Virus record (IMG/VR): IMGVR_UViG_2718218135_000001
Coordinates: 32,001 to 96,000 of that record
Length of the DNA stretch: 64,000 bases
Source of the DNA: a virus
Taxonomy: Duplodnaviria; Heunggongvirae; Uroviricota; Caudoviricetes
Direction: 5' to 3' (one strand)
Shown: piece after piece, positions 54,938-58,491 of the stretch
Position numbering within the stretch: the first letter of the stretch is position 1
Layout of the letters: the number at the start of each line of letters is the position of its first letter
Program-made: the position numbers and the translations under genes
Notes under the pieces: model-generated
Seen by the model: the letters and a program-made list of their open reading frames with translations, nothing else
The model's database searches: none
Told to the model about the DNA's origin: nothing

Positions 54938-55750
54938 ATGAAAGAAGAATTTCAGAAGTTAGTCTGCGACATCATCGACAAATCCGGCGTAGAAATTGAT
55001 ACAGAAGAGCGCCAGAAGATTATCGACGAGGCGATCCAAACTGCGCTGGAGCATATCGCCACGTCCGTGAGCGCCGCACCTCTTTCGGAAGGCTCGAAAT
55101 ACATGCAGGTCTGGGTTCGTTTTGGAGAGTCCCCGGAGTTGCCAGGTGTTAAGCAGAAACGCGCGGCACTTGTGGCGTTCTCTCGCGAGATGAAAGACGC
55201 AACGGTCGAAGTGAGTACCGGTGCATGGTACGACGGTCGCATTGTCTACACTAATCAGACTGTCTACACCAATCAGACTGTGTGCGATGAAGGTGAACGG
55301 TTTGAGGATATTGTCGACGCAACTCTTCGCACGCTCAAAGTCAGAGCTGGTGTGGCGGATGACCCGTCCATCGCGGCGTTCCTGAGTATTGTCGAACAGT
55401 CTGAAGTTACCGAGCGCGTAACAGATCTGACAACTCCACCTGGTTTGCTGGAATTGGTGGTCAGTGGCGATATCAAAAAAGCCGTTGAGCGCATTCGTGA
55501 GGTGGAATACGGCATTATCTGCGATATGTGCCGCAGCGACTTAGACCTGGTGCGCATCATTGTCGACGCGGGTCAGGCATGTGACGGAGTACTCGCCAGT
55601 TTTGCAGGGCAAGTGGCTCGTCTGGCCAACGAATTACCCATGATTAAACAAGAAGCCAAATCCTACGCCGTTCATCGTACCAACGATTTACTGGACCCAT
55701 ACCGGTTCGAAGCTGCTCAGGACAAAATGACTGGCTGGGCGACCTGGTAA
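54938..55750 (+). CDS. hypothetical protein (270 aa)
   Basis: ORF with AGGAG RBS; contains 18-bp tandem duplication; terminator downstream. Confidence 0.55.
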   Translation: MKEEFQKLVCDIIDKSGVEIDTEERQKIIDEAIQTALEHIATSVSAAPLSEGSKYMQVWVRFGESPELPGVKQKRAALVAFSREMKDATVEVSTGAWYDGRIVYTNQTVYTNQTVCDEGERFEDIVDATLRTLKVRAGVADDPSIAAFLSIVEQSEVTERVTDLTTPPGLLELVVSGDIKKAVERIREVEYGIICDMCRSDLDLVRIIVDAGQACDGVLASFAGQVARLANELPMIKQEAKSYAVHRTNDLLDPYRFEAAQDKMTGWATW

Positions 55751-55767
55751 GCCTCGATAAAACATTT

Positions 55768-55790
55768 AGCCCCCTCGTGGGGCTTCTTTA
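55768..55790 (+). terminator. rho-independent terminator
   Basis: gcccc-ctcgt-ggggc followed by TTCTTT. Confidence 0.6.
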
Positions 55791-55797
55791 AACTGCG

Positions 55798-55814
55798 ATT
55801 AATAAGTAAGTACA
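55798..55814. promoter_or_regulatory. TAAGTA-type box (partial palindrome)
   Basis: attaataagtaagtaca upstream of gene 55832. Confidence 0.4.
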
Positions 55815-55831
55815 AGATTACGGTTAGAAGC

Positions 55832-56308
55832 ATGTCCACAAGAACAGATTTGTCGAAAATCCCGTCTATCTCCGGAAACAACGGTTATTCGCTGCGCTGC
55901 CCGGAAGTGAAGCTCAACGGCCATGAGGCTCATTGCAGCTATACAGTCTGCCAACACACGATCCTCGCCTATAAAGAAAAACGTCTCCCGGCTACATCGT
56001 TCCAGTCCTGCGCTGCGGCTATTGCTGCTGGTAAATGTCAGGCACTGAAAATGATGGTCGAAGAGATCCGCAAAGACGAACAGCTCTACTTCATCGATAT
56101 GTCTTCACTTATCAAAGAAGTGGAAGAGCAAAACGACCATGCCAGAACGCTCCCCCGGAAGCGAAACACCGCGACAATTGACAGTCTTATTCATCGCACG
56201 AAGAAAACAGAACCTGCTAAATCCGAAACCAAGCCCACCGATTCACTGGCGCCGGTCACTGACGTGTACGCGGCACTCATTGAAGAAGCAACCAAAGAAA
56301 ACACATGA
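55832..56308 (+). CDS. hypothetical Cys-rich protein (158 aa)
   Basis: ORF; no recognisable motif. Confidence 0.5.
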   Translation: MSTRTDLSKIPSISGNNGYSLRCPEVKLNGHEAHCSYTVCQHTILAYKEKRLPATSFQSCAAAIAAGKCQALKMMVEEIRKDEQLYFIDMSSLIKEVEEQNDHARTLPRKRNTATIDSLIHRTKKTEPAKSETKPTDSLAPVTDVYAALIEEATKENT

Positions 56309-56342
56309 AAACTCCCGAGCGACCGATGGAGGTTAAACACTA

Positions 56343-57665
56343 ATGGAAAAACTGATCGCCCTAAAGCACAAGCTGGATGCTATTAAAACGATGGGAACCA
56401 ACGCCAAGAAAGAGGCGCTGGCCAATCTGGATGAATTTGAACAGAGCATGGTCTCGCTAATGCTCAATCCATTCATTCGATTCGGTGTGAAGAAGTACAA
56501 AGTGGCCGAGCCACTCGATACTTCCGTACCCAGCGACCAGAAGGTAGTAGATCTGCTGGAGAAGCTGGCAGCGCGCGAACTGACCGGGAACATCGCTATT
56601 GCTGCTGTCGAATCACTCGTTGCCTCGATGTGCGCTGACGGGCAGGACGTGTTTCGTCGCTTCCTGCTGAAAGATCCGAAAGCCGGTGTCGGCATCAGCC
56701 TGTGCAACAAGGTGTTCGAAAACCCAATTCCGAAGTTTGAGGTACAGCTGGCGTCTCCGTACAAGGAGAAAGGCGACAAATACCCATTTAAACCAAATCC
56801 AAAGGCCAAGTGGCCAATGATCGGCAGTCTCAAACTCGATGGTCTCCGGGTTATCTGCGAAGTCATCGTGGACGAGGGTGAGGTCAATTTCCTGACGCGC
56901 ACCGGCAATCCGATTACGTCACTCGATCACCTTAAACCAGCCATGCTGGAGCGGAGCAGACTCTCCGGCTTCAATCACATCTTCTTCGATGGAGAGGGCA
57001 CTGCAGGTACATTCAACCAGTCAGTGTCGGCGCTTCGTAAGAAGAACGTGAAAGCCATTGGTGCCGTTTACCACATTTTCGATTTCTTCTTACCGGAGTG
57101 GCGTGCTCAAGCAAAAAGCAAAGAGTACCTGAAGACCGGTATGAAGCTGAAAGAGCGCCTGGCTATGCTGGTGGCGTTGTTCCGCAACACTTGCGTGGAA
57201 GATTATGCGCAAGATATCCACCTTCATCCGTTCTACATCATCCATAGCCACGAAGATTTCATCGAACGTTTCATGAAGCGACTGGACGAGAATGAAGAGG
57301 GAGAGATGGGCAAAGATCCGGATTCAGTTTACGAGTTCAAACGTACCCGCAGCTGGTGGAAGCTGAAAGACGAGGATTCAGAAGACGGTGAAATCATCGA
57401 CTTCGAGCCTGGCGATCCGGATTCTGGATTTGCGCATACGCTAGGCAAGATAGTGATTCGTCTGGAGAACGGCGTCATCGTTCGTGCCAGCGGTATCAAG
57501 CATAAATACCTGGATGAAATCTGGAACAATCAGGAGAAGTATCGTGGACGCATCGTTGAGGTTCACTGCCATGAGAAAACGCCAGATGGTAGCTTGCGTC
57601 ATCCACGTCTGAAGTGGCCTAAATGTCTTCGAGATACCGAAGATCGTATTGGAGATAAAGAATGA
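56343..57665 (+). CDS. ATP-dependent DNA ligase
   Basis: adenylation motif KLDGLR and downstream EGEMGK...WWKLK motifs; GGAGG RBS. Confidence 0.7.
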   Translation: MEKLIALKHKLDAIKTMGTNAKKEALANLDEFEQSMVSLMLNPFIRFGVKKYKVAEPLDTSVPSDQKVVDLLEKLAARELTGNIAIAAVESLVASMCADGQDVFRRFLLKDPKAGVGISLCNKVFENPIPKFEVQLASPYKEKGDKYPFKPNPKAKWPMIGSLKLDGLRVICEVIVDEGEVNFLTRTGNPITSLDHLKPAMLERSRLSGFNHIFFDGEGTAGTFNQSVSALRKKNVKAIGAVYHIFDFFLPEWRAQAKSKEYLKTGMKLKERLAMLVALFRNTCVEDYAQDIHLHPFYIIHSHEDFIERFMKRLDENEEGEMGKDPDSVYEFKRTRSWWKLKDEDSEDGEIIDFEPGDPDSGFAHTLGKIVIRLENGVIVRASGIKHKYLDEIWNNQEKYRGRIVEVHCHEKTPDGSLRHPRLKWPKCLRDTEDRIGDKE

Positions 57666-57841
57666 TGCTCGGCTGGATGTTTGTATTTTTAGTCGTCGGC
57701 ATTGTTATCGGAAGTCTGGTTATGTCCAGCTGTATCCACGATTACGTAAAAGCCGGTGTCATGCAAAGGCGAGGTCGTATTTATCGCATAGTAGATATCA
57801 CGGACACACTGAAGGAGATTAAGGATGAGCATGTTAAGTAA
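57662..57841 (+). CDS. possible small membrane protein (59 aa)
   Basis: hand-translated; ATGA overlap with ligase stop; one TM segment. Confidence 0.3.
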   Translation: MMLGWMFVFLVVGIVIGSLVMSSCIHDYVKAGVMQRRGRIYRIVDITDTLKEIKDEHVK

Positions 57842-58037
57842 ACGAGAGAAGGAAACCCTGCGTGAAATCAGCAAGTGGAAGGAGTTCTACGCCAACTGGA
57901 AGCCGAAGACCAGAGCCAAACTGGAGCGCATGAATCTTGTCGCCAACGTTTCTCCAAAGGGATGTATTGAGAACTATCAACTGACTGAAAAAGGTTATTT
58001 GTTGTTGCAGCAATTGACTGAGGCGGGGGCATACTGA
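57825..58037 (+). CDS. hypothetical small protein (70 aa)
   Basis: ORF from track. Confidence 0.4.
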   Translation: MSMLSKREKETLREISKWKEFYANWKPKTRAKLERMNLVANVSPKGCIENYQLTEKGYLLLQQLTEAGAY

Positions 58038-58189
58038 TGATTCCATACATCATTTTATCATTCACTGGTGGCGTGGGCCTCGGCCTCGCAATCTGCCGCG
58101 CCCTGGTCCAGCAGGAACTGAAAACCAAAACACTTCGTGTCGGTAAGCGTGTGTATCGGGTTGTTCACGAGACGGGAGTGCGAAAATGA
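58037..58189 (+). CDS. possible small membrane protein (50 aa)
   Basis: hand-translated; ATGA overlaps on both sides. Confidence 0.3.
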   Translation: MIPYIILSFTGGVGLGLAICRALVQQELKTKTLRVGKRVYRVVHETGVRK

Positions 58190-58491
58190 GCAATTTGACT
58201 TCCTTCGACTGGTGGCTGGCAACCTACCTTGTTGCGGCCGGCTTCGGATTTGCCTTTTACGTTGGTCAGTTAATCGTAAAGCTACTGCTGATAAGATTCG
58301 CCAGCGATAAACGCATAGACGACGGTCTGTGGCGTCTGGGGCCCCTGTTAGAGACGCATTACGGCGAACTCAAGGAAAACGAAACTATCACTATTCAAGC
58401 GAAGCGTTTTACCGCCATCATCACGAGAACTTCGGAACAAAAGGGGAGCCTGATCAAAAAGATAGCAACTAAACGCATCACAGATAGATAA
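58186..58491 (+). CDS. small membrane protein (101 aa)
   Basis: N-terminal TM segment. Confidence 0.45.
   Translation: MSNLTSFDWWLATYLVAAGFGFAFYVGQLIVKLLLIRFASDKRIDDGLWRLGPLLETHYGELKENETITIQAKRFTAIITRTSEQKGSLIKKIATKRITDR

Follow-up and report, generated by a model that had tools for sequence, protein, structure and literature searches.

The SSU5 supergroup of phage-plasmids, which comprises SSU5_pHCM2, pKpn, pSLy3 and pMT1 (PMC7969092), provides the closest described counterpart of the DNA analyzed here. This DNA is a 64,000-nucleotide (nt) stretch of a tailed-phage sequence (IMG/VR record IMGVR_UViG_2718218135_000001, positions 32,001 to 96,000; hereafter the window), and our subject is a 3.55-kb block within it, at positions 54938-58491, that contains an ATP-dependent DNA ligase gene preceded by two and followed by four further open reading frames (ORFs). 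Orthologous, syntenic blocks with identical gene order are SSU5_042-048, the corresponding segments of pHCM2 and pMT1, and CYRAN_34-39 of the Escherichia coli phage-plasmid Cyrano. The features by which the supergroup is recognized were all found: a size of about 100-115 kb, siphovirus structural genes (terminase, portal, capsid, tape-measure and tail), ParB-type partition genes, several toxin-antitoxin pairs and SSU5 synteny. The replicon also encodes a DnaB-like helicase, a primase, a CobT/CobS-like pair and DnaE. The stretch belongs to an SSU5/pHCM2/pMT1-type phage-plasmid, and the block is the ligase segment of its replication module (early/middle lytic phase); our explanation as a whole, in its demonstrated and its interpretive parts, we consider likely.

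The block itself is an ordinary, already sequenced and cataloged, highly recurrent segment of a known phage-plasmid family, made up of a standard ligase gene and six uncharacterized genes. Its DNA matches E. coli plasmid pCUVET18-789.1 at 100% identity, Salmonella phage SSU5 at 91% and both Cyrano and the Klebsiella phage-plasmids at about 74%, and it occurs at 254 places in 247 complete E. coli genomes, all of them on plasmids and none chromosomal. Its last gene, encoding 101 amino acids (aa), is carried by 658 PLSDB plasmids, nearly all of about 100-115 kb and non-mobilizable; the protein is 92% identical to that of Yersinia pestis pMT1 and 89% to that of Salmonella Typhi pHCM2. Gene order is constant in SSU5, Cyrano, pJN2-26 and 80 IMG/VR loci: helicase, primase, a variable slot, the genes for a 270-aa and a 158-aa protein, ligase, small ORFs and tRNA-Asn. 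The seven block genes are co-directional, with short gaps or overlaps, and lie after the helicase and primase genes and before tRNA-Asn, the CobT/CobS-like pair and DnaE. In a phage-plasmid family that is very common in enterobacteria and includes pMT1 and pHCM2, the ligase block can now be read as one co-directional, operon-like unit. The value of this is mainly in tidying up; a transfer-messenger RNA (tmRNA)-like element found just downstream is the more surprising observation and would matter more if confirmed.

Seven ORFs around a T4-type ligase

All seven ORFs exist on the + strand at exactly the coordinates that an earlier sequence-only reading of the window had given them. The 270-aa ORF (54938-55750) and the 158-aa ORF with five cysteines (55832-56308) are followed by the 440-aa ligase with its K164-LDGLR motif (56343-57665) and then by the small ORFs, of which the first encodes 59 aa when counted from its first ATG (57662-57841) or 58 aa when counted from its second (57665), and the others encode 70 aa (57825-58037), 50 aa (58037-58189) and 101 aa (58186-58491). 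A Shine-Dalgarno-like motif lies 6-13 nt upstream of each ORF, that of the 158-aa gene being weak. Promoter and terminator signals inside the block were not above chance (6 versus 6.9 and 4 versus 5.4, respectively, in shuffled sequence). The reading frames are kept across up to 85 related loci, and all seven ORFs are under purifying selection: the ratio of nonsynonymous to synonymous substitution rates (dN/dS; Nei-Gojobori method, ORFs from all loci, pairs with dS of 0.15-2.5) is 0.22 for the 270-aa protein, 0.14 for the 158-aa protein, 0.04 for the ligase and 0.14, 0.09, 0.20 and 0.09 for the 58-, 70-, 50- and 101-aa proteins.

Very short ORFs, some of which are omitted from certain annotations (the 50-aa ORF or the first small ORF), might be taken for chance frames in a noncoding spacer after the ligase. 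To this we attach practically no probability, and judged by the comparative data it is already refuted: the small frames are preserved in 69-85 loci at near-constant length, with 29-42 distinct protein variants each and dN/dS values of 0.09-0.20, and each matches a PHROG family over its full length (E=1e-33 to 1e-57). These PHROGs are families of unknown function, and Pfam, NCBIfam and PADLOC gave no match for six of the seven proteins.

The short ORFs had been described as encoding 59, 70, 50 and 101 aa and as being joined by ATGA overlaps. All four are genuine, and the length of only the first needs revision. Of 69 relatives, 29 have CTG or GTG in place of the first ATG, so the start is most likely at 57665; the NCBI PGAP annotation pipeline likewise uses the 58-aa form, under the name AplA. 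This stands for 'after-plasmid-ligase protein', a purely positional name for which a literature search found no paper. ATGA overlaps account for at most two of the four junctions. The 50-aa/101-aa junction is of this kind, and that between the ligase and AplA is ATGA if translation starts at 57662 and TGATG if it starts at 57665; the 58-aa and 70-aa genes overlap by 17 nt and the 70-aa and 50-aa genes by 1 nt (TGATG).

The ligase had been recognized from the sequence KLDGLR and proves to be a complete T4-type ATP-dependent enzyme whose motifs hold on alignment: I (K164LDGLR), III (FFDGE214), IIIa (VYHIFD242), IV (EGEMGK319), V (WWKLK338) and VI (RHPR419). Motif I is kept in 54 of 55 ligase variants, and all motifs are invariant in 54-55 of the 55 except for conservative changes in IIIa. 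The protein matches Pfam DNA_ligase_A_M (47.2 bits against a cut-off of 26.2, E=2.8e-12), phrog_114 (E=5.7e-124) and, in the PDB, T4 ligase (6dt1, E=2.5e-24) and the Prochlorococcus marinus enzyme (6rau, 4e-23); the alignment with 6dt1 covers residues 13-205, and that with the T4 DNA-binding domain on its own (5wfy, E=1.7e-5) covers residues 12-125. By these matches it is a three-domain ligase, composed of an N-terminal DNA-binding, a nucleotidyltransferase and an oligonucleotide/oligosaccharide-binding (OB) domain, and is predicted to seal nicks. It has the three-domain layout, the helical N-terminal DNA-binding domain and all the motifs in common with T4 gp30 (6DT1) and the P. marinus ligase (6RAU); the nearest phage ligases outside the SSU5 group are about 25-31% identical.

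Two observations bear on when the ligase is needed. Plasmid pGS04EC-1 (NZ_CP079773.1; locus L001, 13405-14727) has an internal stop in its ligase gene, and its phage-plasmid is otherwise intact and is maintained. In overnight cultures of a Cyrano lysogen in lysogeny broth (LB), expression of the ligase gene, given as log2(5+FPKM), where FPKM is fragments per kilobase per million mapped reads, was 2.45-2.66 against a floor of 2.32, like that of capsid genes (PMC9928086 S1 Table). Since the gene is interrupted in the former case and silent in the latter, the ligase appears to serve lytic replication rather than plasmid maintenance, and it would seal nicks and Okazaki fragments as the element's own replisome copies the DNA in the lytic phase.

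The ligase gene here is preceded by a dedicated gene for a four-cysteine protein; to our knowledge, the T4 ligase gene has no such neighbor. The 158-aa protein had rightly been called cysteine-rich. C23, C40, C60 and C69 among its five cysteines are invariant across a wider family, for which a profile search of 1.84 billion representatives returned 192 relatives (cluster representatives) of 130-260 aa at E<=1e-3. The family falls in phrog_5055, to which the 158-aa protein belongs, and the related phrog_4558, and has an N-terminal domain in which N17, Y37, M74 and E78 are invariant along with the four cysteines, a low-complexity linker and a short conserved C-terminal helix (Y-A-x-x-I/L-x-x-E); its profile found nothing among PDB sequences. 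Among sequenced phages it is restricted to those of about 103-120 kb, namely SSU5-like phages, the Pseudomonas Nickievirus group and Stenotrophomonas ANB28/BUCTxx99. The four-cysteine gene comes right before the ligase gene, often with an overlap, in Pseudomonas phiK7B1, Stenotrophomonas ANB28 and an IMG/VR contig of 103 kb; in these three it sits between the primase gene and that of a 25-28%-identical ligase, whose start it overlaps, and CobT/CobS-like genes and DnaE come next where the sequence reaches far enough. Loci of the distant four-cysteine proteins could for the most part not be recovered from IMG/VR with back-translated patterns, and the pairing was counted in the lineages that were recovered. 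With this scope, the four-cysteine/ligase gene pairing is kept in four distant phage lineages, to the limit of detectable divergence.

From this conservation, the 158-aa protein is probably a partner or accessory of the ligase or replisome. It may be a metal-binding accessory whose N-terminal domain and conserved C-terminal helix would bind DNA or the ligase/replisome. Two points weigh against this interpretation: the gene pairing may merely reflect inherited synteny of the whole module, and the AlphaFold2 model of the protein is unusable (predicted local distance difference test score, pLDDT, of 46), so that metal binding is read from the four invariant cysteines alone. Even so qualified, the protein is a candidate ligase or replisome accessory conserved across distant siphophages of about 100 kb.

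The two genes upstream of the ligase had been grouped as an unknown two-gene block. With the 158-aa protein now placed as a conserved four-cysteine neighbor of the ligase, that description still fits the 270-aa protein, which by the searches made here is a lineage-restricted orphan without a fold match. It is acidic, belongs to phrog_4248 and is the homolog of SSU5_042 and CYRAN_34. It diverges fast, and its relatives (41-100% identity) are confined to Enterobacterales phage-plasmid contigs of about 100-116 kb. The family has no Pfam domain, and a profile search against PDB sequences found nothing. A confident AlphaFold2 model (pLDDT 84.7) has a helical hairpin, a sheet of 4-5 strands and a C-terminal helical bundle. 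A 277-aa protein in the same slot of phiK7B1 was considered as a relative and rejected (hhalign probability 0.4%). The Cyrano homolog CYRAN_34 (OV696614, 34791-35573) is the best-expressed gene of the block in lysogens, well above its neighbors, in published LF82 RNA sequencing (RNA-seq) data. Particular to this window is a duplication of 18 nt in tandem (55243-55278), whose two copies agree at 17 of the 18 positions and which repeats VYTNQT in what the model gives as a low-confidence loop; the protein has 270 aa here and 264 aa in most relatives.

Small proteins encoded after the ligase

The prediction of transmembrane segments in three of the four small proteins stands. The 19-residue Kyte-Doolittle scores of these three exceed the usual threshold, at 2.57 for the 58-aa protein AplA and 1.83 for both the 50-aa and the 101-aa proteins; the 70-aa protein has no hydrophobic segment (0.03) and is soluble and basic. 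AplA and the 50-aa and 101-aa proteins each have one N-terminal hydrophobic helix, with fewer than 18 residues before it and a net-positive tail after it, and are predicted to be bitopic inner-membrane proteins of N-out/C-in orientation.

Within AplA, G12xxxG16 and R-x-Y-R-I are invariant. In the 50-aa protein G16 is invariant, G12 is present in 32 of 33 variants and G-K-R-V-Y-R-V-V-H-E-T is conserved. The two proteins align end to end over 49 collinear columns (hhalign probability 80%, E=1.4e-5), with the GxxxG motif at the same positions, 12/16, and a common tail motif, G-[RK]-R-[IV]-Y-R-[IV]-[VI], and they are probably paralogs. Profile comparisons found the 101-aa protein unrelated to either. 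Its predicted cytoplasmic domain of about 60 aa is strongly conserved, with KRIDDxLWxLG and AKRFTA invariant. Residues 32-67 of the 70-aa protein give a weak profile match to the recognition helix and wing of MarR/HxlR proteins (2rdp, E=0.084; no Pfam match), and the Cyrano homolog is labeled 'putative transcriptional regulator'; the protein is possibly a winged helix.

Two database labels for these proteins do not hold. 'C-type natriuretic protein', given to the 101-aa protein and propagated among database records, is unfounded, no Pfam or NCBIfam family being matched at E<=0.1. 'Lipoprotein', given to AplA in one record, would call for a lipobox ([LVI][ASTVI][GAS]C) behind a positively charged N-terminal region and has no support: AplA has VMSSC and no basic N-terminal region, and the cysteine is replaced in some variants (e.g., ...IMTDRIS... 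in locus L066).

The four genes differ in how firmly they are kept. The 70-aa gene was found by tblastn in 84 of 85 loci, two of its ORFs being truncated; the exception, L024, ends at the ligase, making this the only small gene kept in every locus that extends past the ligase. AplA is absent from 13 loci through an exact, repeat-bounded 163-nt indel. The AplA cassette is bracketed on the + strand by two copies of a 15-nt imperfect direct repeat, GGAGAT[A/T]AAG[A/G]ATGA, at 57651-57665 and 57814-57828, the right copy holding the Shine-Dalgarno motif and start codon of the 70-aa gene. Loci that lack AplA have a single copy and are joined exactly at the 15-16-nt repeat; with or without AplA, the repeat puts the start codon of the following gene onto the stop codon of the one before it. 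Some Klebsiella elements carry, in place of the end of the 50-aa gene and all of the 101-aa gene, a gene for an unrelated 138-aa protein with a C-terminal membrane anchor. This replacement (L078, 6846-7262; also L077, L079 and L081) belongs to phrog_34759, of unknown function, and has downstream of it, on the opposite strand, a gene for a 529-aa membrane protein (phrog_13820).

Small membrane proteins had been thought unusual after a ligase. For this family the arrangement is standard: it is found in all 658 plasmids with the 101-aa gene, and NCBI already names AplA. What survives of the remark is that distant phages with the same replication module hold unrelated, non-membrane genes in this place (a 62-64-aa ORF or guanylate kinase in phiK7B1, ANB28 and L089). 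No member of the small-protein families was found outside Enterobacterales phage-plasmids. As a minor observation, an exact 15-nt repeat, ATGATTCCATACATC, occurs at 58037-58051 and 59057-59071; the 50-aa gene begins with the first copy (MIPYI), and the second, upstream of tRNA-Asn and followed at once by stop codons, is either a chance occurrence or the remnant of a duplicated gene start.

The small proteins look like a lineage-specific accessory cassette whose members are individually dispensable or swappable and whose production goes mainly with that of the early/replication genes, and they are probably not a core replication component. They would be made with the ligase, have their tails in the cytoplasm and probably oligomerize in the membrane via GxxxG. 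Their likeliest job would be to modify the inner membrane or host membrane proteins in lytic growth, whether for protection against superinfecting DNA or for some other kind of take-over, and an exclusion or other host-membrane function during lytic growth is the reading that we tentatively prefer. Exclusion was one of two roles raised in the sequence-only reading. In its favor we count the lineage-specific nature of the genes, the clean absence of AplA from 13 loci and the swap of two genes in some Klebsiella elements. T4 Imm and Sp are small inner-membrane superinfection-exclusion proteins made with early genes. The proteins described here resemble them in being small, inner-membrane, lineage-specific, easily exchanged and made with early genes, but have no sequence similarity to them and expose almost nothing to the periplasm. 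In the overnight LB Cyrano lysogen, CYRAN_37-39 were at or near the floor of 2.32 (2.3-3.0; PMC9928086 S1 Table), which argues against constitutive exclusion by the prophage and not against exclusion in the lytic phase.

Several points count against a lytic host-membrane role or limit the data behind it. No small ORF matched PADLOC at E<=0.1 or a Pfam defense or exclusion model. In growing or intracellular bacteria the three annotated Cyrano small genes reached 4.4-6.3, as against 3.9-4.3 for the ligase, and could have an internal promoter and some expression in the lysogen. These expression values come from one study, of a relative that is 70% identical; the six non-ligase proteins are known here from sequence comparison and that relative's RNA-seq alone. 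The topology of the small proteins is taken from hydropathy and the positive-inside rule alone, and hydrophobic segments may inflate the score for paralogy between AplA and the 50-aa protein.

The position of the small genes in a helicase-primase-ligase operon, and their translational coupling to the ligase, would also suit membrane anchors that tether replicating DNA or the replisome together with the 70-aa protein as the DNA-binding component. Phage phi29 p16.7 and p1 are membrane-associated replication organizers of this kind, and the likeness extends to the N-terminal membrane anchor, the basic cytoplasmic tail and the location among replication genes. The predicted cytoplasmic, basic C-terminal tails would fit such a role, GxxxG motifs suggest oligomeric scaffolds, and the 70-aa gene, present in every locus past the ligase, is under strong purifying selection and encodes a weakly winged-helix-like protein. 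We rank this explanation second and nevertheless judge it unlikely. The small genes are absent from distant phages that share the helicase-primase-four-cysteine-ligase-CobT/S-DnaE module, natural variants dispense with AplA (13 loci) or have the 50-aa and 101-aa genes replaced (some Klebsiella elements), and there is no homology to the phi29 proteins, the Pfam searches having matched no family, phi29 proteins included.

The other role that had been proposed was that of toxin-like peptides. Short hydrophobic proteins with GxxxG motifs could form pores, and toxin-antitoxin modules are common on the replicon, so that a type I toxin, an addiction module or a holin-like lysis-timing factor might be considered. 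This we regard as very improbable, because promoter or terminator signals specific to these genes do not exceed chance, their ORFs overlap one another and that of the ligase, with which they are translationally coupled, and the soluble, predicted cytoplasmic tails are conserved under purifying selection. Nor was an antisense-RNA-like feature found above chance, an endolysin or spanin gene within +/-4 kb, a lysis gene in the 27-kb annotated stretch, or a PADLOC or Pfam toxin or holin match. To return to the lytic host-membrane function that we prefer, the small membrane proteins now form a defined, testable accessory cassette for which natural knock-out variants exist.

A tmRNA-like RNA downstream of the block

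No conserved ORF occurs in the 743 nt that separate the 101-aa gene from tRNA-Asn, and the variable sites there lack 3-nt periodicity (89/87/83). The first ~580 nt of this spacer are nevertheless about 77% identical between phage-plasmid groups whose 270-aa proteins share 41-47%, and positions 58612-58671 are about 98% conserved over 59 distinct sequences. RNAalifold, applied to nine diverse copies, gave 109 pairs, 14 of them with compensatory double changes, and many invariant G.U pairs lie on the + strand, to which the operon and the tRNA also belong. The 5' part of about 150 nt (58529-58677, + strand), which starts 38 nt past the last small ORF, forms a module that resembles part of a tmRNA and is probably in the same transcription unit as the small genes.

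Set against ssrA of E. coli MG1655, the module aligns position for position from the A-rich leader through the GCA resume codon and the ten-codon frame to the stop. The tag frame of the window (58571-58603, + strand) reads ANEDAYLAVA, compared with ANDENYALAA in E. coli, ANEEMYLAVA in phage HK620, ANDNVFLAVA in Felix-like phages and ANDDLMMVAA in a P1-like plasmid; the family consensus is A-N-[DE]-[DEN]-x-[YF]-L-A-V-A-stop. Across 19 distinct tag DNAs the frame always has 10 codons, all three stop codons (TAA, TAG and TGA) are used, and synonymous changes occur at codons 6, 8 and 10. The tag stop codon is located in a hairpin. A helix (58619-58623 with 58635-58639, + strand), YGAGG/CCUCR, covaries (5 C-G versus 12 U-A), and its loop forms a pseudoknot with sequence downstream (58628-58633 with 58649-58653, + strand), CC(AG|GA|AA) pairing with (CU|UC|UU)GG in all of 13 sequences and the P1-like copy having GUCG opposite CGAC, which amounts to three or four covarying pair types. 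All the elements of the mRNA-like domain of a tmRNA are present: GCA resume codon, tag frame, stop, A-rich leader and pseudoknot.

The likeness to bacterial tmRNA (ssrA, RF00023) extends over the leader, the GCA codon, the 10-codon tag, the stop in a hairpin and the pseudoknot that follows; the difference is that neither an acceptor stem nor a T-arm nor a CCA end is detectable in the module. No Rfam family matched it at threshold, and the only Rfam signals in four lineages were sub-threshold matches to interior positions of tmRNA models (RF00023, positions 56-295 of 374, E=0.0056). ARAGORN at default settings found no tmRNA or tRNA-like domain (acceptor stem, T-arm, CCA) in the window or in the HK620, Carvaje and Felix-like loci, and at lowered thresholds returned noise only; inspection of 58678-59234 by eye showed no T-arm or acceptor-like element. 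Large RNAs of the GOLLD/ROOL type and YrlA were considered as identities of the RNA and dropped, there being no Rfam match. A search of the accessible literature found no tmRNA-like element without a tRNA-like domain, only complete viral tmRNAs and ssrA fragments at attachment (att) sites. We suggest, as a real possibility that still falls somewhat short of an even chance, that the module represents an undescribed phage RNA family derived from tmRNA, which would have kept the tag template, stop hairpin and pseudoknot and lost a recognizable tRNA-like domain.

The module is widespread. It occurs in 417 phage records at about 74% identity, and its carriers besides SSU5-like elements include Felix O1-like phages, Klebsiella siphophages (e.g., Carvaje) and P22-like/lambdoid phages (e.g., the P22-like HK620). 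It is also found in 772 plasmids and in 880 of 5426 complete E. coli genomes, at 150 chromosomal places, presumably prophages, and 798 plasmid places; almost none of the listed E. coli places has an annotated feature under the match. Related copies lie in loci L090 (2440-2615), L091, L092, L093-L172 and L213 (2495-2680). Its placement is upstream of or inside phage tRNA clusters, or in a late leader. In SSU5-like loci that reach far enough, tRNA-Asn follows it at a distance of 515-580 nt; Felix O1-like genomes have it within the tRNA array, with tRNA-Ile 57 nt upstream, tRNA-Arg 36 nt downstream and room for about 250 nt between these two; in P1-like plasmids it is between dmt and tRNA-Asn/Thr; and in HK620 it is between pR'/qut and the late terminator.

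If the RNA is functional, phages would manipulate or re-program trans-translation via an RNA that is not chargeable on its own. Such an RNA might act as a decoy for SmpB, S1 or RNase R, as the partner of a tRNA or as the template for an altered degradation tag. If confirmed, this widespread, unannotated and structurally supported RNA would bear on the interplay between phages and ribosome rescue and on the reason for the additional stable RNAs in phage tRNA clusters.

The module is followed in the SSU5 lineage by a lineage-specific, structured noncoding 3' extension (58678-58990, + strand) with covarying stems, the long ones being the inverted repeats 58718-58740/58780-58802 and 58873-58892/58969-58988 (+ strand). 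In the published LF82 RNA-seq data, a very high signal (about 150 normalized counts) is assigned to CYRAN_40 of Cyrano (OV696614, 39144-39356). Because this gene is annotated on the opposite strand across a tRNA-Thr/Ser array, the signal probably reflects a tRNA or noncoding RNA transcript.

Variable regions flanking the block

The conserved downstream neighbor of the block is tRNA-Asn (GTT; 59235-59309, + strand), which is followed by a terminator-like hairpin at 59386-59402. Past it, at 59564-61482, the ligase block is separated from the CobT/CobS/DnaE genes by a plasticity zone, occupied here by a 171-aa ORF without a family match and a tyrosine integrase gene (60379-61482). Relatives hold extra tRNAs (Thr, Ser, Tyr) or glutaredoxin, PhoH or toxin-antitoxin genes in this zone, and in pGS04EC-1 a YafO-type toxin gene is inserted between tRNA-Asn and the integrase gene. 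A second tRNA gene of the window, tRNA-Lys (TTT), lies at 41887-41967 on the - strand.

On the upstream side, this copy differs from its SSU5 relatives, apart from the 6-aa tandem duplication in the 270-aa protein, by the contents of the variable slot between primase and the 270-aa gene. Where SSU5 has gene 041, the window carries cargo at about 47000-54900, made up of a chaperone-usher fimbrial operon of the yehD type, a Phd/Doc toxin-antitoxin pair and remnants of IS3-family transposase genes with frameshifts (53291-54272 on the - strand and 54467-54842 on the + strand). The guanine-plus-cytosine content of the cargo slot is 42%, as against 50% for the ligase block.

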